Shown here: piece by piece, positions 13,416 to 54,720 of the stretch | Numbering within the stretch: the first letter of the stretch is position 1 | How the letters are laid out: each line of letters starts with the position of its first letter | From: Candidatus Latescibacterota bacterium | GTDB taxonomy: Bacteria > Latescibacterota > UBA2968 > UBA8231 | Assembly: GCA_965248265.1 (NCBI GenBank) | Contig: CBDFJF010000002.1 | Span: forward strand, 1,568,001 to 1,632,000 | DNA: 64,000 nucleotides | Direction: 5' to 3' | The notes under the pieces: generated by a model | The model's database searches: none | The model's input: the letters and a program-made list of their open reading frames with translations, nothing else | Told to the model about the DNA's origin: nothing | Translations under genes and position numbers: made by a program

Positions 13416-14810
13416 TTACTCGAACCACAGCGAGAAGATCTCCGCGTCGCGCAGACTCAGCCGCACACTCCAACCCCCATCGTACGGTTTTTCTGAAGCG
13501 GAGTTCTGCCACTGGATGACGTGGTCGAGCGAGTCGCCGTCGAACGGCTGGCAGGTGTCGGCCTCAAACCCGGGTACTGCCTTCCCGTTTTCGTCCAGTA
13601 GTTCGGCTGTGATCTGGCCCCGTGACGCGTCGGCGTTGAGGTGCAGTTCACGACCCGCCGGTACAGGCACCGTGATCAGTTCGCCACCCCCGTCGACAGC
13701 TCGAAGCCCCACCAACCTGTCCCTCTGCCATCGCGCCAGGCCGATGGCCCGCTTCATGTCCCCTTTTCTGTGCGTGCCATGGGGCCGGTCCATGGCGAAG
13801 TAGTAGAGCCGCAGCTCGTCGCCGTTCTCGACAAACGACTTGGCCGAACGGATGAAGCCGCCGTCCCATTCACCGCGCCTGCCCATCTCCAGGATGCGCT
13901 TGCGGTCTCCGACCCGCTCCCATTTGCGGCCGTCGCGGCTACTGATGAGCTGAACGTCCATGACGCCTTGCGTGTTGAGGCCGATGTTGCCCGTCATGGT
14001 GTCGGTCGAGCGCAGGATGTCCATGAAGCCCAGCAGCAACGGTCCGTAGCGGAATATTGGGATGCCGTAGATCTGCGAGGCTTTGTCCGGATCACCGCCC
14101 GCCCACTCATCGTCGATCTGGTCGGGGATCACGGCAGGCAGAGGCAGCGTCCAGTCCAGCGCGTCCTCACTCACCGTCCAGTTCTGGATACGGCGTCTCC
14201 TTCCCCGGATCTGCAGGTGACACTTGACCATCCCACGAAAGAGGTTTTCGCGTTCATCGTACATGTAGAATCCGACATCGTGAAAGCGTGGAATCACCGG
14301 TTCCGACGACCAATCCGTCCACCTCAGTCCGTCCTCGGAAAAACGGACGTAATGACTGAGCCCACTGAGCGCGAGCAGGGTGTAGCGCCGGCCCGGTCCC
14401 AGCTGCGGCGTGTGCAAGACGTTCGAGTACTGATGGGGGCGGCTCTGCGGGTTGAGGAAGATATTGCTTTCCATCGATCCTTCGGGGTCGGCGAACTGAC
14501 CCAGTGCAGGCCGGCGCCACTCGATGCCGTCGTCGCTCTCGGCGTACATCGACCAATTGACCGCCTTCGTTTCGCCTCGGCCCCCGATGCCCGATCCGTA
14601 CCACATTCGGTAGAGACCCTCTTCCTTGAGGACTGTCCCGAGCATGGGCTGGCCACACTCCCACGGCCGGTCGCCACGCAGAACAGGATTGCCCTCGTAC
14701 TTATCGCCCGGATGGATACGGCGCTGAAGGCCATCCATCGACTGGATCTGCGCGTCGTCGATAAACAAGACCCGGTCCTCGGAGCTGGGAGAACTCGTAA
14801 CGGGCGTCAT
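13416..14810 (-). CDS. Five-bladed beta-propeller glycoside hydrolase-like protein (GH32/43/130-like) with C-terminal beta-sandwich
   Basis: LFIDD, NPVL..DRPWE, YRMWY, YAESDDGIEW, SEDGLRW, SSRDGRKW, WDGG, LHLNADAS...GQITAEL. The start overlaps the upstream stop (ATGA). Confidence 0.75.
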   Translation of the reverse strand: MTPVTSSPSSEDRVLFIDDAQIQSMDGLQRRIHPGDKYEGNPVLRGDRPWECGQPMLGTVLKEEGLYRMWYGSGIGGRGETKAVNWSMYAESDDGIEWRRPALGQFADPEGSMESNIFLNPQSRPHQYSNVLHTPQLGPGRRYTLLALSGLSHYVRFSEDGLRWTDWSSEPVIPRFHDVGFYMYDERENLFRGMVKCHLQIRGRRRRIQNWTVSEDALDWTLPLPAVIPDQIDDEWAGGDPDKASQIYGIPIFRYGPLLLGFMDILRSTDTMTGNIGLNTQGVMDVQLISSRDGRKWERVGDRKRILEMGRRGEWDGGFIRSAKSFVENGDELRLYYFAMDRPHGTHRKGDMKRAIGLARWQRDRLVGLRAVDGGGELITVPVPAGRELHLNADASRGQITAELLDENGKAVPGFEADTCQPFDGDSLDHVIQWQNSASEKPYDGGWSVRLSLRDAEIFSLWFE

Positions 14811-16216
14811 GGCTCCCACCACAGTGAAAAGAGTTCGGCATTTCGCAGCTCCAGATGGATGCGCACTGTGCGACCGGCCAACGAAGAGAGGTCGCCGTTT
14901 TTCCATTCGAGTAGATGGTCGAGAGCGTCGCCGTTCATGGGCTCACATTCCGCGACCGAGAAACCATCGATTGGTGTTCCGTCCTCCTCCGCTAGCGAAG
15001 CGCGTAAACTCCCGCTGGAAGCGTCGGCATTCACGCGCAGGCGGCCGGCGGCCACGGTCGCCGTGGTCTCGACGACGCCGTCCTCTCCGGTCGCCAGTCC
15101 GACGAGCCGATCTCGCGGCCAGGACGCCATACCGATGCTCTTCGTCCACTGGCTCCGCAGAAGCGCACCCGGAGTCTTCCGGCACCCGGTGTAGTAGGCG
15201 ACAACCCTGTTTCCGTCCTCAATCAGCGAGTTGCCCATCCACACGTATCCACTATCCCAAAACGAGTCGGTAGACTCGTCAGAGTCGTCAGACTCGTCGG
15301 AGTCGTCCGACGCCCCGCCGCGCTCCAGGATCGGGCGTCGGTCTCCCACGCGATGCCAGATCTTGCCGTCCCTGCTGGACACCAGCTGGACATCCATCTC
15401 GCCGTCGAGTCCGCCGCCAATCACCCGGCCTCGCAGCACCTGGAGGAAGCCCAACAGCATCGGACCATAGCGCGTGATCGGCATCGCCGGGAAGAAGGTA
15501 CTGTTACTGCGGTCGCCGCCGGCCCATTCGGTGTCCGCTTCGTCGCGATTGATGACAGGGCGGGGGAGGGACCACTCCAACCCATCCGTGCTCTGCGTCG
15601 CGTACAGCTGTGCTTCCCAGCGTGCATAGGAAATCAATCCCCGAAATTTCTCGTCGACCTCGTCGTACATGAACCACCCGATCTCGAAACCGGGGATGAC
15701 AGGCGTCTCCGGCCCGTCGCTCCAACGTACCCCGTCGTCGGAGTAAGCGGCAAAATGACCGTTGTAGGGCAGATCGTAGCCGCTGCCATAGGAGAGCATG
15801 GTGTAAGCGTGGCCTGCCGGCGCGTGGGGTCTGCAAAGGACGGACGGGTGGATGTCCCGGTCGAATTTCGTCCTGACCAAGGTGATGTTGTTGGCGTAGG
15901 AACCCATCGCATCTTCGGTCACGCCGAGCTCGGGCTTCGACCACGCTAGACCGTCATTGCTCTCCGCGTACAGGTGGAGTGAACGGATGAAGGAGTCGAT
16001 CCCGATAGGATCTGGAGCCATCGCGTAAGATTGGTACCACATCCGGTACCGACCGCCCTCTTTGCGAACGGTCCCCAGCGTCGTCTCCGCTCCCTCCCAT
16101 TCGCGGTCTGATGAGACGACCGGGTTTCCGTGCTTGCGGGCGGGGTGGATCCGGCGTTCCACGCCCTGCATCGAGGTGATCTGGGCGTCGTCGATGAAGA
16201 GGATCCTGTCCGTCAT
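14807..16216 (-). CDS. Five-bladed beta-propeller glycoside hydrolase-like protein (tandem paralog of 13416-14810)
   Basis: Same motif series: LFIDD, NPVV..DREWE, YRMWY, YAESNDGLAW, SSRDGKIW, LRVNADAS. ATGA overlaps at both ends. Confidence 0.75.
   Translation of the reverse strand: MTDRILFIDDAQITSMQGVERRIHPARKHGNPVVSSDREWEGAETTLGTVRKEGGRYRMWYQSYAMAPDPIGIDSFIRSLHLYAESNDGLAWSKPELGVTEDAMGSYANNITLVRTKFDRDIHPSVLCRPHAPAGHAYTMLSYGSGYDLPYNGHFAAYSDDGVRWSDGPETPVIPGFEIGWFMYDEVDEKFRGLISYARWEAQLYATQSTDGLEWSLPRPVINRDEADTEWAGGDRSNSTFFPAMPITRYGPMLLGFLQVLRGRVIGGGLDGEMDVQLVSSRDGKIWHRVGDRRPILERGGASDDSDESDDSDESTDSFWDSGYVWMGNSLIEDGNRVVAYYTGCRKTPGALLRSQWTKSIGMASWPRDRLVGLATGEDGVVETTATVAAGRLRVNADASSGSLRASLAEEDGTPIDGFSVAECEPMNGDALDHLLEWKNGDLSSLAGRTVRIHLELRNAELFSLWWEP
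15264..15310. repeat. Degenerate 9-bp tandem repeat encoding SDDSDESDDSDESTDS
   Basis: gactcgtca/gagtcgtca/gactcgtcg/gagtcgtcc units read directly from the sequence. Confidence 0.85.
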
Positions 16217-17200: not shown

Positions 17201-18301
17201 TCAGCTTTTTTCTACCAAACGGCAGCAGCGCACGTAGGTGACTTGCTCTTCGGTGACGTAGAAGGCGACGATGATGGTTCCGTCTGATAGCTGCGTGATC
17301 GATGGGGTCCCGAACGTGAAGTGATGGTACGAGTCGAAAGCGTCCTCGACGAGGTCACGCTTCCTCGACAGCACGGGTGCGCTCCTGACGCGGGCGGGCT
17401 CGATGCCCCACAGCTCGAGATGATGCTCCTCATCGAAACTCGCACCGCCGTCATCAGATAGCACCGCGCGCACGCCCATCGGTTCGCGGCGGTGGTTGGT
17501 CACGGCGATCACGCGGCCACTCTGCAGACACAGCACGTCGGTTACCTGGCCCCAGAATCTGGCGTTCTGCGGATCGCTCCAGGTTTCACCGGCGTCTCTC
17601 GAAAACGCGGTGTGGACGTTCAGCCCCGAGTCACTTTTCATGTCATGGGTCCAGAATGCAGCCAGCAGACTGTCGTCGGCAAGCTGCGTCAGGCGAAGGT
17701 CGAAATAATACCTGTTGTCAACCGGCCCCTGAACCCGCCGCCACGGTTCCCACGAGCGAGCGCCGTCGTGGGATCGAGTGATGGTGGCCGCCCAATCCGG
17801 TGGCTCGTCGTCGGTTCGATCCTCACCCCACTCACCGGCGGCTATGATGGTGCCATCTGCCATCGTCAACAGGTTGCCACCAGGTCCCATGCGATCGAAT
17901 GGGGCACTGTCTATGGGAGCGAGCGCCGACCAGGTATCTCCGCGGTCCTGAGAGGTGGCGACAAGCTGTCCATCCCCTGTACCGCTGCGGGGGTAGCGCA
18001 CGCAGGCGACGGTCTGTCCGTCTGCAGTTACGCCGAAGCCGCCGGGAAGCCGCCAGCCTTCAACTGCATCTGGGGGTTCGGGCAGTTGGCCGGCGCGATC
18101 CCAGGTCACTCCTCCATCTGTTGAACGGTGGATGACGACAACGCCGTCGTCGCTCTCTCGGGCGGTAGCATGCCGGCACATGCACAGCAGCGTGTCGTCA
18201 GGCAACGCCTGAATCGACGGGAAGGCGACGTACTCGTTTTTCAGGTTGGGATGGGGATTGCGATAGATCTCGCAGTGCCCGGATACCTCGAGATGGGCCA
18301 T
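17201..18301 (-). CDS. Sialidase/BNR (Asp-box) repeat protein
   Basis: AFPSI and Asp-boxes STDGGVTW, SQDRGDTW, SHDGARSW, SRDAGETW, SDDGGASF. Confidence 0.85.
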   Translation of the reverse strand: MAHLEVSGHCEIYRNPHPNLKNEYVAFPSIQALPDDTLLCMCRHATARESDDGVVVIHRSTDGGVTWDRAGQLPEPPDAVEGWRLPGGFGVTADGQTVACVRYPRSGTGDGQLVATSQDRGDTWSALAPIDSAPFDRMGPGGNLLTMADGTIIAAGEWGEDRTDDEPPDWAATITRSHDGARSWEPWRRVQGPVDNRYYFDLRLTQLADDSLLAAFWTHDMKSDSGLNVHTAFSRDAGETWSDPQNARFWGQVTDVLCLQSGRVIAVTNHRREPMGVRAVLSDDGGASFDEEHHLELWGIEPARVRSAPVLSRKRDLVEDAFDSYHHFTFGTPSITQLSDGTIIVAFYVTEEQVTYVRCCRLVEKS

Positions 18302-18530
18302 GGTCTCACATGCCGTCGTTGGGGGTCAGCGAATTTCCAGCGAACGTAGCAATACTCATCCCTGTTTGCCATGATGTCAGGGTGCAGGACCCTGTCCGGC
18401 AGGGGGAAAGAAGGCAGGGTGAATTCTTCACAATGGGGGACTGGGTTTTCGTATATATTCCATACTATAGTGTTACGAAGTGTTTACTCGAACTTGTAGC
18501 TCGTAATTCCTCCGCCTCGGAAGCGGTGCC

Positions 18531-19232
18531 ATGAAACCTGCGACGAAAGCCGCTCTATTCGGGCTCTGGGCCCTCGTGCTCTCAAGCGGTTGCGGTTACG
18601 GTGACGATGTGGCTTACAGCCCGTCGGCTCCTGCCTACGATGCGGAAAGGGATCTGGGCCGGCCAACCACCGCCACGATTCAAGACCGCACCGGCAAGAT
18701 CTGGGACGTGGCTCACGCGCAGGAATACGGCATGGTGTCATCCGGCTTCGAATTCGGTCTGGGACCTTATGCCATCAAACCCATAATGAACCCGCAGATG
18801 CTCTCCGCGGGCGATTTTAACTACCCTTCGAACCACGACAATTTTCGCGTCATGGGGGTTAGGCTGAACGGTTTCATCCGCGCCTATCCCCTGGGCATCT
18901 TGACAGGGCACGAAGTTGCCAACGAGCAGTTCGGAGACGCGCACGTTGCCGTGGCCTACTGACCACTGGTCGATCTGGCTGCCGTGTACAGCCGAGAGAT
19001 TGACGGCGAAATTCTGACCCTGAGCGCCAGTGGATGGACCTATCGCAGAACCTTCGTGCTGTTCGACTACGAGACCGAAAGCATGTGGTACCACCTGCAA
19101 GGTGACGACGGATTGACCTGCATCAGCGGTTTCTACGCCGACCGCAAGCTGCCTGAACTCGAATCCAGCCTTACGCGCTGGAACCTTTGGAAAGCGGAAT
19201 TTCCGGATTCAGAGTTCCTCAAGTACCCCTAG
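18531..19232 (+). CDS. DUF3179-like lipoprotein, probable selenoprotein (in-frame TGA at 18960-18962)
   Basis: ORFs 18531-18962 and 18984-19232 are in the same frame. Read-through gives RAYPLGILTGHEVANEQFGDAHVAVAY-U-PLVDLAAVYSREIDGEILTLSASGWTY...LFDYETESMW...TRWNLWKAEFPDS, colinear with DUF3179 (YCPLC). Lipobox LSSGC. Confidence 0.85.
18963..19004 (+). promoter_or_regulatory. Candidate bacterial SECIS stem-loop
   Basis: GTCGATCT (18969-76) pairs with AGATTGAC (18997-19004, one G-U pair). GGCTG (18977-81) pairs with CAGCC (18989-93). The loop CCGTGTA starts 19 nt after the UGA. Confidence 0.7.
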
Positions 19233-19348
19233 GATTGCCGGCCCTTCTCGTTAGGAACCAGCCCCACTTTTGAACCCAAGTTCGCCAAGCATGCTATAAG
19301 GCGGTTAGACAAAGGCGTCGGAGGAGAGAGTCCATGAGGGTCGGTCTA

Positions 19349-20254
19349 CTACACTGGCTTGCGATCCTTCAGGTTCTGTCCCACATACCGGTACCCAGGC
19401 ACATTGCCGGCGCAATGCGTTCCGCGAAACAGCGTCTTCCGCATCGCGGGCATCCGTTCCACCAATGCCTCAGGCGGCTGCCATGGGCTCCACCGGGACC
19501 CGACGCTGTTGTAGAGATTAAAGATCGCCACCCGCTCGTCGTCTGCATTGGTCCAGGGGCACGTGCTGTGCGCCAAGGCCTCGGTAAAAAACAACACCGA
19601 CCCTGCCGGGCATTCATAGGTGTCCCACACCGCCGAATGCGGGTCTTGTATTGACTCGGGCGCGGCATAGGCCGCCTTGTGGCTGCCCGTGGCCAGGAGT
19701 GTCCCGCCCTGTCCCATCTTCACAGGGGCCAATTCCCACACCACCCGTGTCAGGCCACTGAACGACTTGCCGGGGATGCTTTGATAGTGGTGTGAGTCGT
19801 AGGCGAAGCGGAATAAGCCGCTGCCATTGTGCGGACCGAAAACCCCTTCTCGTTCGGGTGTGGCCGCCGGGTTGCGCAAGCCGCTACTCTCCATGCGAAA
19901 GCCATAGCACTCCGGGCTCGACAGATGTGGAAAAGCCAGGAATTCGTTCAAAAAACCCACCACGACTGGATGGTCCGTCAACTTCTGCAGTGGGCCGGCG
20001 ACATGGCTGCGCTCGTGCTCTGGCAGTGACTTCGGATTTCGCACCACCCTCAACGCGTATTCACGCATCGCCTCGATCTCGTCATCGGCCAACACGCCCG
20101 GCACCAACAGCCATCCCCGCGTATCAAAGAGGTACTTCTGCTCCTGCGTCAACGCTATCACCGGTTCGCCATCGGCGTTCCTGGTGGGTAGGTCGCCTTC
20201 GGTAATCTCCAACTTATGTCCCAGATTCTTGTCTACTACGTATGCTTCGCTCAT
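19349..20254 (-). CDS. Divergent PhyH-family Fe(II)/2OG enzyme with H-x-G motif (halogenase candidate)
   Basis: LTQEQKYLFDTRGWL, PHNG at the WHQD position, RVVWEL, GGTLLATGSHK, GSVLFFTEALAH, ERVAIF. Confidence 0.85.
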   Translation of the reverse strand: MSEAYVVDKNLGHKLEITEGDLPTRNADGEPVIALTQEQKYLFDTRGWLLVPGVLADDEIEAMREYALRVVRNPKSLPEHERSHVAGPLQKLTDHPVVVGFLNEFLAFPHLSSPECYGFRMESSGLRNPAATPEREGVFGPHNGSGLFRFAYDSHHYQSIPGKSFSGLTRVVWELAPVKMGQGGTLLATGSHKAAYAAPESIQDPHSAVWDTYECPAGSVLFFTEALAHSTCPWTNADDERVAIFNLYNSVGSRWSPWQPPEALVERMPAMRKTLFRGTHCAGNVPGYRYVGQNLKDRKPV

Positions 20255-51848: not shown

Positions 51849-52024
51849 GGTTCAAACTCCTGTCTTTCGTTGCCCGGTGGATACCCTTTTTGCCTCGGCG
51901 CTAGAGGCTACGCCGTTGACAGGCCGGACACAAGATGGCTCATGTACGGTTGCCATTTACGCCGCTCCCGGGCTATGCTCCTTGGGTGTACGTCCACACA
52001 GACCAAGCAGACCAGGAGAACGAC

Positions 52025-53344
52025 ATGAGCAACATACCCATGACCCGTGCCGAAGAGGCCCTGGCGATCCACGAAACCCGGTACTTCCACGACTCCTCCT
52101 TCGTTGAGCTCGACGACGGCCGCATCATGCACTCGGCCTACGGGGTCTTCACTTTCTCAGATGATGGCGGGGTGACCTGGTCGGAGGAGTCGCGCCACCG
52201 CGACCGCAACGGCGACCCCGTCGGTGGCAGCGGGACCTCCCTGGTGAGGTTGTCGGAAAAAGGCATAGGCCTCGGGGTGCGGCGCCTCAATCAGGACGGC
52301 AAGGTCGGGCAGGAGGCGAGTGTCATCTTCCGGCGCTCTGAGGACGGCGGTGAGACATGGGAGCCGCCCGTTGAGGTCAGCTCCCCCGGAGTCGATACCC
52401 ATGCCTACCAGGACGTGCTGTTGCGCACCTCCTCGGGACGACTCATCTATCCGGTGTACACGGCGATGGGGAAGGGCACGACGAGTTTGAACGACTCGGA
52501 GCGGCCCGCTGTTGGCAAGCTCGTGAAGGGCCAGTGGGTTGCGGTGGGCGCTCACGATTACGACCCCAGGTTCACGACCGTGTACGTCTGCTACTCCGAC
52601 GACGACGGTCGCACCTGGGAGCGCAACCAGGACGGCGACCTGTTCATCCTGCTGGATTGGAATGCCTCCTTCAGCTACATCAATGAACCATCGGTGACCG
52701 AGGTAGCGCCAGGCACGCTGCTGATGATGTTGCGCACCGGTCTGGGCCGTCACTTCCAGGCATGGTCCTATGATAATGGCGAAACTTGGACGCGCCCGCA
52801 GCCCACGTCCCTGGCTTCGAGCACGACGCCATGCCAGATACGGACCCTGCCCAACGGCCACCTGCTGATGGTCTGGAACCAGGAGAGCGAAGCGGAGATC
52901 AAGCAGGGTTACGCCAGGACACGTCTGTCCGCCGCGATCAGCCGCAACGGTGGCAGCGTGTGGGAGTTTTTCCAGAACGTGGAGTCGATGCACGAGACCA
53001 CACGAGTCGAACCGGGACCCATCTGTCCGACACGCCCCGCCGAGATGCATTTCGATCCCGGGTCCGCCTCCCCCGAGCGGGAGGTCGAGCACATCCATCC
53101 GGCGGATGCGCACGGGCGGTGGGCGTACCCATCAGCGTTCGTGCTCAAGGACCGGGTCATCATTGCCCACACCTATTCTTACTATAAGGAGCATCCGACT
53201 GAGGCCCGTCTGGTTTCTAGCCGGACCGAAGAAGGGGCACCGAATCAGAAGCAGAAGGTGCTCCCACTGAGCTGGTTCTATGGCGGCAAGGAGCCCGCGG
53301 ACAACCCATTTCTGACCACGACACGAGAGCCGGCCCAGCCGTGA
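52025..53344 (+). CDS. Sialidase/BNR (Asp-box) repeat protein
   Basis: SDDGGVTW, SEDGGETW, SDDDGRTW, SYDNGETW, SRNGGSVW; EPSV, RTRL, AYPS. AGGAG RBS. Confidence 0.88.
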   Translation: MSNIPMTRAEEALAIHETRYFHDSSFVELDDGRIMHSAYGVFTFSDDGGVTWSEESRHRDRNGDPVGGSGTSLVRLSEKGIGLGVRRLNQDGKVGQEASVIFRRSEDGGETWEPPVEVSSPGVDTHAYQDVLLRTSSGRLIYPVYTAMGKGTTSLNDSERPAVGKLVKGQWVAVGAHDYDPRFTTVYVCYSDDDGRTWERNQDGDLFILLDWNASFSYINEPSVTEVAPGTLLMMLRTGLGRHFQAWSYDNGETWTRPQPTSLASSTTPCQIRTLPNGHLLMVWNQESEAEIKQGYARTRLSAAISRNGGSVWEFFQNVESMHETTRVEPGPICPTRPAEMHFDPGSASPEREVEHIHPADAHGRWAYPSAFVLKDRVIIAHTYSYYKEHPTEARLVSSRTEEGAPNQKQKVLPLSWFYGGKEPADNPFLTTTREPAQP

Positions 53345-53454
53345 GGCCGCTGGCAGCGGGGCGCCACAGCATCCCGAGGTGAGCTCTGCTCTGGCGATGT
53401 TTCAGAGGTTGGGAAGTTCTTGCATGGGTTGCACCCGACACGCACAATGAGGTC

Positions 53455-54720
53455 ATGGAGAACGCCGCACCCAAAGCCCGCATTTGCTGCCTCGATCTGG
53501 ACACGTTCTTCGTCTCGGTCGAGCGATTATTCCGGCCGGATCTGATTGGAAAACCGGTGGTGGTCGGTGCCCTCCCGGGAAGCCGGGGTGTGGTCACCGC
53601 TGCCAGCTATGAAGTGCGCGCCTTCGGGGTGCGCTCCGGGATGTCAATCGCCGATGCCTATCGGTTGGCACCGCATGCGATCTACCTGTCCGGGCGGCAC
53701 GGGGAATACAGCCAGTACGCCTGCCGGGTGAAGGAGATTCTCGAGCGTTACACACCGATCGTCCGAACGGCAAGCATCGATGAGTACTTCCTCGACTTCC
53801 GTTACTGCGAAGGAATGTACCGCGATGACGGTGACCGCGATGACGATGCGACCATCGAACGGGTCGTGCGCGAGGTGTGTCTGGCAATCAAGAACGAGAC
53901 CGGTCTGCCAGCCAGCGCCGGTATCGCGACGTCGCGACCGGTAGCGAAGATGGCCTCGAATGTGGCCAAGCCGGCGGGGGTGCGAATGGTGCGCTCAGGT
54001 GAGGAGCGCGCATTCGTCATAGCGCTTCCGTGTCGCAAGTGGCCCGGTGTGGGACCGGTTGCCGACGAACGGCTCCGCAAATCGGGCATCAACACGCTCG
54101 GCGATCTGCTGGCGGTGCCGGAGAGTTCACGCGAGCGATCCCTGGCCACGTCGGTGCGTCAGGTGGTTTCGGGTGAGGCCGACAACGGGCTCGGGCGTGA
54201 CCGGCCGGCGTTCCGCGAGCACGATCCAAAAGGGTTGACCCTTGGCAGCATCTCCAACGAGAGCACCTTCGGACATGATGTCGGCGACCTGGACGCCATC
54301 CTGGATCGTCTGCGCTCCCTTGGCGAGCGGGTCTGCTGGCGTGCGCGGCAAAGGGGCATCCTGGCGCGTACCATCACCCTCAAGCTCCGTTACGCTGACT
54401 TCGAGACCCTGACCCGGGCCCGCACCATCAGGGCGACGAATGTCGAGGCTCGGGTTCTCGCGTGTGTGAAGGAGCTCTTCCGGGATAACTACGACGGGCG
54501 TCGCCAGGTCCGTCTCCTCGGCATTGCCCTCTCAGGGCTCCAGGAAACGAGCTGTCAGCTCGAGTTGCAGTTCGACGAAGAGGCGCGTCCGCCCATGGAA
54601 AAAGCCATCGACGCTGTCCGCGAGCGCTTCGGATATGAGTCGATCCGCCTCGGACTGGCAGAGCGGTCGAGGCGGCGCTACCGCAACCGGCCCAAACCCG
54701 GTGCAAAAGTGGCTGGCTGA
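53455..54720 (+). CDS. dinB: DNA polymerase IV (Y-family)
   Basis: DLDTFFVSVE, AASYEVRAFGVRSGM, SIDEYFLD, AKMAS..AKPAG, SISNESTF, TLKLRY, VRLLGI. Confidence 0.94.
   Translation: MENAAPKARICCLDLDTFFVSVERLFRPDLIGKPVVVGALPGSRGVVTAASYEVRAFGVRSGMSIADAYRLAPHAIYLSGRHGEYSQYACRVKEILERYTPIVRTASIDEYFLDFRYCEGMYRDDGDRDDDATIERVVREVCLAIKNETGLPASAGIATSRPVAKMASNVAKPAGVRMVRSGEERAFVIALPCRKWPGVGPVADERLRKSGINTLGDLLAVPESSRERSLATSVRQVVSGEADNGLGRDRPAFREHDPKGLTLGSISNESTFGHDVGDLDAILDRLRSLGERVCWRARQRGILARTITLKLRYADFETLTRARTIRATNVEARVLACVKELFRDNYDGRRQVRLLGIALSGLQETSCQLELQFDEEARPPMEKAIDAVRERFGYESIRLGLAERSRRRYRNRPKPGAKVAG

Follow-up and report, generated by a model that had tools for sequence, protein, structure and literature searches.

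Bacterial selenoprotein genes need a stem-loop directly 3' of the UGA codon, as stated in the relevant passages of Zhang et al. (Biomolecules 2022, PMC9312934). In a table of the same review, DUF3179 appears as a selenoprotein family with the motif UxxC/T, where U is selenocysteine (Sec), and it is likewise listed, with the same motif, in a table of a 2026 AEM review (PMC13188914). Both reviews credit the family to Zhang & Gladyshev (NAR 2007, PMC1976440), with reference to Olavius symbionts; the new-families section and the figure legends of that paper do not contain the name DUF3179. Another paper merely lists a DUF3179 protein in one of its tables, and a full-text literature search for DUF3179 found no functional study. 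Here we analyze a gene of this family at positions 18531-19232 of a 64-kb window (the whole stretch of DNA under analysis, C2:1568001-1632000) in the 7.3-Mb, two-contig genome of a Latescibacterota bacterium. Comparative sequence evidence indicates that it is very probably a genuine selenoprotein gene, in which the UGA at 18960-62 is decoded as Sec, and that gene callers mis-split it. Passages of a paper found by a literature search for Latescibacter and selenocysteine do not concern this gene.

The gene resembles the listed DUF3179 selenoproteins in belonging to the same Pfam family, in having Sec at the first position of a CxxC-type motif and in having a selenocysteine insertion sequence (SECIS) directly downstream. 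The tables give C or T at the last position of the motif (+3), whereas this gene has V, and its clade also A, I or Q. Furthermore, proteins of the clade have a single repeat and ~180-240 residues, compared to two repeats and ~400 residues. UxxC and UxxT were seen in canonical-type Sec forms (loci L119, L134; L122, L124, L125). The canonical Cys-containing DUF3179 proteins (two tandem repeats, about 350-500 aa, usually Y/W-C-P-L-C) contain a homologous repeat (hhalign E 3.9e-33 between the short-form profile and the long-form first halves), and four such long genes are present in this genome, one of them adjoining a short Sec paralog. They are distinguished by the second repeat, by Cys in place of Sec, by a Cys at +3 in most domains, and by their placement in a separate, well-supported clade. 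In the tables of the two reviews, thiol-oxidoreductase-like thioredoxin-fold selenoproteins with UxxC, UxxS or UxxT show a similar use of Sec at the N-terminal motif position, with the second Cys lost in UxxS and UxxT; the fold predicted here is a beta-sandwich and not a thioredoxin fold. Because DUF3179 is already listed, some members having been described as annotated selenoproteins in the initial annotation of this locus, and because the same short clade occurs in a metagenome-assembled genome (MAG) of the Olavius algarvensis Delta 4 endosymbiont (L098, GY-U-PLVNLAAVYSR), an organism covered by the 2007 study, the gene is a new member of a known selenoprotein family, and an earlier estimate of its novelty was too high. 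The short exported UxxV/A clade is not described as such in the literature passages found; the two-register SECIS and the Rieske-like fold, both described below, are new observations as far as checked.

Under translation table 11, the locus is read as two open reading frames (ORFs) in the same frame, 18531-18962 (143 aa) and 18984-19232 (82 aa, GTG start). The initial annotation had taken the two for one frame broken by a single TGA and had proposed an exported Sec protein that gene callers split. We verified the frame and the translation: with TGA read as U, a single 233-aa product results, with the context AHVAVAY-U-PLVDLAAVYSR and no other TGA. The features of the locus are listed below.

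18531..19232, + strand: predicted selenoprotein coding sequence, 233 residues; ATG start, TAG stop at 19230-32, Sec as residue 144
18531..18593, + strand: putative signal peptide and lipobox (MKPATKAALFGLWALVLSSG-C21), from the sequence pattern; the predicted lipid-modified Cys is residue 21
18780..19223, + strand: single DUF3179 repeat, residues 84-231, matching the first, Cys-bearing half of the canonical two-repeat family
18867..19181, + strand: predicted Rieske-like beta-sandwich core, residues about 113-217, AlphaFold2 (AF2) model
18960..18962, + strand: UGA very probably read as Sec (U144), at the position of the first Cys of the canonical DUF3179 CxxC
18969..19004, + strand: extended hairpin of this copy only, minimum-free-energy (MFE) fold, with an additional 8-bp lower stem GTCGATCT/AGATTGAC
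18976..18994, + strand: conserved core of the SECIS, 6-bp stem UGGCUG/CAGCCG and 7-nt loop CCGUGUA; nt 17-35, counting the U of UGA as 1

It should be noted that pairs of ORFs, each at least 60 aa long and separated by a single TGA, occur 61 times in this GC-rich window, which serves as the chance baseline. Only one of the 61 candidates, the DUF3179 gene, has a Pfam domain (residues 84-231) across the joining TGA. The bare ORF-TGA-ORF pattern with a hairpin is lifted above chance by comparative evidence only, and that evidence is strong. As to possible sequencing errors that would hide a TGC or TGT, the contigs of four public runs show no letter other than TGA at 18960-62, although these contigs derive from a single sample, which is probably the source of the assembly itself, and are not independent. 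No Pfam family matches any of the antisense and overlapping ORFs 18738-19100 (-), 18484-18741 (-), 18310-18534 (+) and 19334-19654 (+), and scans for promoters and terminators gave nothing beyond the shuffled expectation.

The in-frame UGA stands where homologs carry Cys. Drawn from this genome, with its 5 paralogs, and from relatives, 29 homolog segments (27-69% identity) carry a TGA, and in 29/29 it lies in one and the same alignment column. At this column, Cys is present in the first repeat of long DUF3179 forms (TFCPLTGT, TYCPLTNS) and in short Cys forms (e.g., P0002 and P0003). Within this genome, the four long DUF3179 genes have no in-frame stops, and the five short ones have exactly one TGA each. 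Among 40 relatives, every match with at least 48% identity has one TGA, and a TGA is absent from most long forms. When 151 genomes were sampled evenly across the phylum, 32/32 matches at E<=1e-30 carried one TGA; these matches come from 17 of the genomes, all within one family. The check on whether close homologs keep the TGA was thus favorable in both sets. Across phyla, the best 80 loci comprise 63 with TGA and 17 with Cys, a ratio that is biased because the patterns used for scanning came from the Sec clade. Two copies in relatives (G015:C1:3730771-3731310 and G012:C8:19270-19965) have an in-frame TAG in addition to the TGA and are probably decaying paralogs, pseudogenes or assembly errors.

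The frame 3' of the TGA is under purifying selection. The ratio of nonsynonymous to synonymous differences per site (pN/pS) is 0.39 downstream (codon +13 to the end) versus 0.50 upstream (100 columns) for 21 sequences and 210 pairs, so that coding constraint persists past the UGA. In addition, the Cys homologs are read uninterrupted through the TGA site.

A structurally conserved stem-loop lies directly 3' of the UGA. In this copy, the MFE fold (-16.8 kcal/mol) pairs GTCGATCT (18969-76) with AGATTGAC (18997-19004), and GGCTG (18977-81) with CAGCC (18989-93), around the loop CCGTGTA (18982-88), as the initial annotation had described it. To assess conservation we used an alignment of 29 homologs spanning from 12 nt upstream to 72 nt downstream of the TGA. 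RNAalifold gives a 6-bp consensus stem (columns 29-34 with 42-47, i.e., 18976-81 with 18989-94), with compensatory changes at three of the six pairs, GC>AU at two (three sequences each) and UA>CG at one, and the loop-region CGTGTA is invariant in 29/29 homologs. The 8-bp lower stem is paired in 62.9% of the cells, with several pairs mostly broken; it is not conserved and is probably not part of the functional element. Hence, the upper stem and the loop of the described two-part hairpin stand, whereas its lower stem is specific to this copy.

The selection on the hairpin is also visible in the codons that it overlaps. Synonymous codons are fixed over codons +6 to +11 (GCT 22/23, GCC 23/23, GTG 26/26, TAC 26/26); the AGC codon is found in 22/26, and the other four have AGT, three of them together with a complementary change. 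Four-fold sites outside the hairpin vary freely, and pS is 0.37 in SECIS codons +1 to +12 versus 0.67-0.69 in the flanks. The hairpin was found in 63/63 cross-phylum TGA loci, in two registers that have a common 3' arm (nt 30-35). Register A (pairs 17:35 to 22:30, 7-nt loop) is completely paired in 22 of the 24 loci L055-L078, the nearest cross-phylum group, which is of the Latescibacterota/Calditrichota/Bacteroidota type. Register B (pairs 19:36 to 25:30, UGUA tetraloop) is completely paired in 25 of the 31 loci L079-L109, of the Desulfobacterota/Nitrospirota type; in these loci the peptide LAAVYSR is unchanged and is encoded by different synonymous codons (GCG GCU). The RNA structure has been remade beneath a fixed peptide. 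The canonical-type Sec forms have the register-A positions paired with unlike letters (CGGGAG/CUCCCG, UUGCUG/CAGCAG, CGGCUA/UAGCCG).

A covariance model trained on 17 sequences from other phyla, with zero Latescibacterota, found one significant site in the 64-kb window, 18960-19007 (+), with 65.4 bits and E 1.1e-12, a score that includes a contribution from coding homology; the runner-up had 12.4 bits (E 1.1). The model also recovered the four paralog sites in the genome. The 17-nt core is present in exactly 5 copies in the 7.3-Mb genome, each 17 nt past the TGA of a paralog.

The genome encodes the complete Sec machinery, with all components exceeding curated cut-offs, and the genes that the initial annotation had proposed to look for (selA, selB, selC and selD) are all present: tRNA-Sec (68.9 bits; called by ARAGORN as tRNA-SeC(tca)), SelA (472 bits), SelB (332.8 bits versus a cut-off of 242, with the SelB wing domain detected as well) and SelD (352 bits). 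SelD (L016, G000:C2:1010876-1011799) contains an in-frame TGA and is itself a selenoprotein, with the context TCG-U-AAK and a strong hairpin just 3' of the TGA (-23.3 kcal/mol, GGUC loop). SelB exceeds the cut-off in 64 of 71 genomes of the family, including 18/18 carriers of the gene, and 0/7 SelB-less genomes carry it; since the family genomes are kin, this co-occurrence indicates consistency and is not statistical proof. TGA is the commonest stop codon, ending 26 of 43 long ORFs in the window, and therefore the genetic code is standard and the recoding is site-specific. With the machinery, the TGA column, the hairpin and the contigs all favorable, the proposal of a Sec protein split by gene callers is well supported by comparison of sequences. 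The current understanding of Sec decoding is unchanged by this gene.

The split is widespread in public annotation. Among the 150 best representatives, 27 end at residue 143 and 8 start at residue 152. The 39 close matches in a large collection include 29 fragments, 3 records with W at the Sec column, 6 Cys forms and 1 divergent sequence; the only name given to close matches is "hypothetical protein", and none is called a selenoprotein. The three records with W (P0156, P0157 and P0161) are full-length. They most likely result from gene calling with a TGA=Trp code, which would be a further route of mis-annotation. NCBIfam has no model for this protein, so that rule-based annotation works without a dedicated model to name or rescue the gene. 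The locus would be a clear example of a selenoprotein cut in two by standard pipelines. Because there are five such genes in this genome and the clade spans many phyla, selenoproteome counts for these largely uncultured phyla are likely to be underestimates.

The assignment to DUF3179 (PF11376) is made with 113.4 bits against a cut-off of 27 (E 1.8e-32), well above the gathering threshold. The match covers profile positions 6-148 of 292 only, so the full two-repeat architecture is absent and the protein is indeed short for the family, as had been noted initially. Long DUF3179 forms have two Pfam matches each. The short-form profile also matches the long-form second halves (hhalign E 1.8e-19), and the long-form halves match each other (E 4e-11). 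Therefore, canonical DUF3179 is an internal duplication, and the short form corresponds to one repeat; self-comparison by hhalign found no internal repeats in the short form. The short form has a conserved N-terminal extension (ITDRTGKxWDVTHA...). A FastTree tree of 135 rows, which is a quick tree with local support values only, unites the canonical first halves in a single supported clade (30 with Cys, 10 with Sec) and places the short forms in two groups (Sec 47/Cys 6/other 7, and Sec 30/31). This tree requires the Sec state to have changed 11 times or more, with 5 of the changes forced by well-supported branches.

With respect to the motif, the initial annotation had expected YCPLC at this position in DUF3179 and had noted the replacement of the second Cys by Val. 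Both hold: the canonical CxxC is present in 69 of the 85 Cys-bearing long-form domains among the 150 best representatives, and the translated frame reads U-P-L-V, with the short clade having mostly V or A at +3, also I or Q. The annotation had also suggested that C197 (LTCISG) might be a distal resolving residue. This column reads G10/C7/S3/A1 in 21 close Sec homologs and is Cys in 14 of 27 wider short forms. It follows from the G10/C7/S3/A1 composition that C197 cannot be an obligatory partner of Sec, and the suggestion of a general resolving Cys was rejected.

Export appears to be general in the short forms, and lipidation appears to be clade-specific, judging by the N-termini. Here the N-terminus (MKPATK / AALFGLWALVL / SSG-C21) is lipoprotein-signal-like and fits the PROSITE-type lipobox rule; a low-confidence linker runs from the lipobox to about residue 44. 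A hydrophobic N-terminus ending in [GAS]-C is found in 5/5 paralogs of this genome and in most relatives. Inspected by eye, 24/24 loci L055-L078 have a lipobox Cys, three of them with an unusual residue at -1, compared to 5/31 of the loci L079-L109, the rest of which have plain signal peptides; such counts are subjective, and a stricter regular expression found a lipobox in 16/55 loci. The predicted lipobox (LSSGC) of the initial annotation is thus kept as a pattern in the paralogs and the nearest cross-phylum loci, and the low count in the more distant group speaks against lipidation as a general property.

The AF2 model was built from a 52-row alignment. Its predicted local distance difference test score (pLDDT) is about 97-98 over residues 45-233 but only about 53 in the signal peptide and linker (residues 1-44). 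The fold consists mainly of beta strands: U144 is the last residue of the strand 137-144, ahead of the PLVD turn, and C197 lies in the strand 194-199. In an exhaustive VIA-align search, Rieske-type domains occupy all of the ranks 1-38 (Rieske ferredoxins, bc1/b6f Rieske subunits, N-domains of Rieske oxygenases, AioB and a NirD-like protein), and the first other fold has a Z of 3.7. The best match, 3dqy_A, superposes 91 of 106 residues with a root-mean-square deviation of 2.7 A and a Z of 6.7, below the tool's caution line of 8; because of this low Z, the model suggests a Rieske-like fold as a lead and not as a finding. Foldseek found no match in PDB at E<=0.001, and a profile search of PDB sequences gave 0 matches at E<=1. 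The predicted beta-sandwich superposes on Rieske [2Fe-2S] proteins and on cluster-less NirD-like proteins, a resemblance of fold only, whereas sequence identity to Rieske domains is 4-16%, amounting to no sequence similarity. The ligand motif of Rieske [2Fe-2S] clusters is Cys-X-His ... Cys-X-X-His; neither part of it was found in the sequence or in the conserved columns. In a rough linear mapping of the model, U144 appears to lie off the cluster-binding loops.

The following sequence of events is consistent with these features. The SECIS hairpin, which begins 13 nt past the UGA, would recruit SelB and Sec-tRNA(Sec). The protein would then be exported via its signal peptide and, as the sequence pattern suggests, most likely anchored by a lipid at Cys21, which would place it in the periplasm or on the outside of the cytoplasmic membrane. 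Since the first CxxC cysteine is replaced by Sec and the second by Val, Sec would be a lone reactive residue. It may act as the nucleophile of an extracytoplasmic selenol redox reaction, with the partner thiol coming from another molecule. Considering the motif and the general use of Sec, we give this lone-selenol redox role roughly an even chance.

Several observations weigh against parts of this interpretation. Sec incorporation is predicted from the comparison of sequences. Taken as a single copy, the hairpin is no stabler than shuffled sequences (z -1.27; 23/200 fold equally well), and there is no Rfam match at E<=1 within 18300-19500. A classical dithiol redox mechanism is disfavored by the absence of the second Cys of the motif and by the variable C197 column. 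In 12 of 27 short spanning representatives, the Sec column is occupied by Q, D, E, S or R, and therefore the Sec residue is dispensable in part of the DUF3179 family. Six short relatives of these types, lacking both Sec and Cys, group as one clade in the FastTree tree. The protein record P0152 (230 aa, 69% identity, same lipobox), a close relative, has YTSEAGLAAVY in place of Y-U-PLVxLAAVY, with Sec and Cys both apparently lost. Finally, the window copy stands alone among unrelated sugar-metabolism genes (UxuA-like, BNR, PhyH and DHDPS), and no constant partner gene was found among 134 neighbor ORFs of 53 cross-phylum loci (134 of the 157 ORFs listed for 55 loci, with L074, L075 and gene-overlapping ORFs left out) or among 62 neighbors of canonical DUF3179 forms.

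As the main alternative, Sec could be a ligand: the protein would still be a selenoprotein, but its short DUF3179 repeat would bind a metal or metalloid (e.g., Cu, Hg, Fe, As or Se species) at the selenolate and would function outside the cytoplasm in binding, in sensing or as a chaperone. We regard this as possible although rather unlikely. The canonical CxxC is also a classic metal-binding motif, and D, E and Q, which occupy the Cys/Sec column in some relatives, can ligate metals. However, Sec would make a poor metal site by itself, and the neighboring sequence offers no further conserved Cys or His (H127 is only 72% conserved). Similarly, the predicted core resembles the metal-cluster-binding Rieske fold, but the match is middling and U144 apparently lies off the ligand loops. 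One paralog adjoins an ArsS-type radical-SAM gene, a neighborhood that is limited to this paralog and close kin, and CusB/HlyD-type membrane-fusion genes are located a few kb off in two relatives.

Another possibility is that the UGA is read through without Sec, either by near-cognate insertion of Trp, Cys or Arg or by a lineage-specific reassignment of TGA. The three homolog records with W at the column point in this direction, but they most likely reflect the TGA=Trp gene calls mentioned above, and the use of TGA as the stop codon of most long ORFs in the window speaks against reassignment. Moreover, the alignment of the site with Cys is a hallmark of Sec/Cys pairs, and a conserved hairpin at SECIS spacing is combined with the full machinery and with SelB in 18/18 carriers, which leaves this explanation very improbable. 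The least probable explanation by our estimate is that the TGA is an ordinary stop, belonging to a nonsense-mutation pseudogene or separating two small genes of 143 aa and 82 aa: standard calling does yield two ORFs, TGA-joined pairs are common in the window, the local hairpin alone is not significant and two relatives have probable pseudogene copies with an extra TAG, but purifying selection 3' of the TGA, uninterrupted Cys homologs, a conserved SECIS, an identical TGA column in every close homolog across many phyla and a Pfam domain that spans the TGA in this candidate alone leave very little room for it.

Returning to the selenoprotein reading, the short clade is found in Latescibacterota, Calditrichota, KSB1, Bacteroidota, Deferribacteres-labelled genomes, Krumholzibacteriia, Desulfobacterales (Desulfobacterota), Nitrospirota and Thermoleophilia MAGs. 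There are 33 copies in 18 carrier genomes, with tandem pairs in 7/18. Two or three short Sec-DUF3179 genes of differing subtypes, the ITDRTGKxWDVTHA type beside the ITDRxGERFDITHA type, form tandem arrays, which are often located near a two-repeat DUF3179 gene (G008:C1:4802548-4804577, G021:C4:1987225-1989227, G010:C1:39029-40444, G003:C701:418-1753 and G101:C10:2089244-2090734). From the sequences, it is a possibility that the tandem subtypes form a hetero-oligomer. A complex prediction with two copies of the Cys homolog P0003 (residues 35-223) returned a score of 0.00, i.e., no answer, and is evidence neither way on a homodimer.

These observations can be combined into a broader proposal, which we consider doubtful as a whole. 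The short single-repeat DUF3179 proteins would be a distinct, widespread exported family, lipid-anchored in some phyla, with Sec predominant and standing alone on a Rieske-like beta-sandwich. Their SECIS would have been rebuilt in two registers, and the tandem A-type/B-type pairs and the adjacency to two-repeat genes would reflect hetero-oligomers that mimic the two-repeat form. If true, the family would represent a novel kind of extracytoplasmic selenoenzyme or metalloid-handling protein. The strong preference for Sec in the exported short clade, the dispensable partner Cys and the predicted Rieske-like fold are starting points for studies of DUF3179 function.

A redox role is hinted at by the canonical CxxC and by redox proteins near some of the loci: Pyr_redox_2 occurs at 4 loci and AhpC/TSA at 3, and one paralog has a DUF255-DsbD_N protein next to it. 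The short Sec paralog at C2:76.8 kb (L050, C2:68000-86000) lies in a cluster that has the same order in L048 (G008). The cluster includes genes for a gamma-glutamyltranspeptidase, a GntG-type pyridoxal phosphate (PLP) aldolase, an 825-aa DUF255/Thioredox_DsbH + DsbD_N protein, an ArsS-type arsenosugar radical-SAM protein (TIGR04167, 432.7 bits versus a cut-off of 300), a small family-less ORF, the short Sec-DUF3179 gene(s), a two-repeat DUF3179 protein and an alginate-export porin. This gene content may hint at metalloid or thiol chemistry, and the cluster is common to close kin only.

Elsewhere in the window, at 51935-53542 (+) and 17201-18301 (-) and also 13419-16216 (-), there are several BNR/sialidase-like genes, together with two adjacent large paralogous ORFs that are clearly alike in sequence and have no Pfam family. 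This gene content is unrelated to the selenoprotein and fits a glycan-degrading lifestyle.

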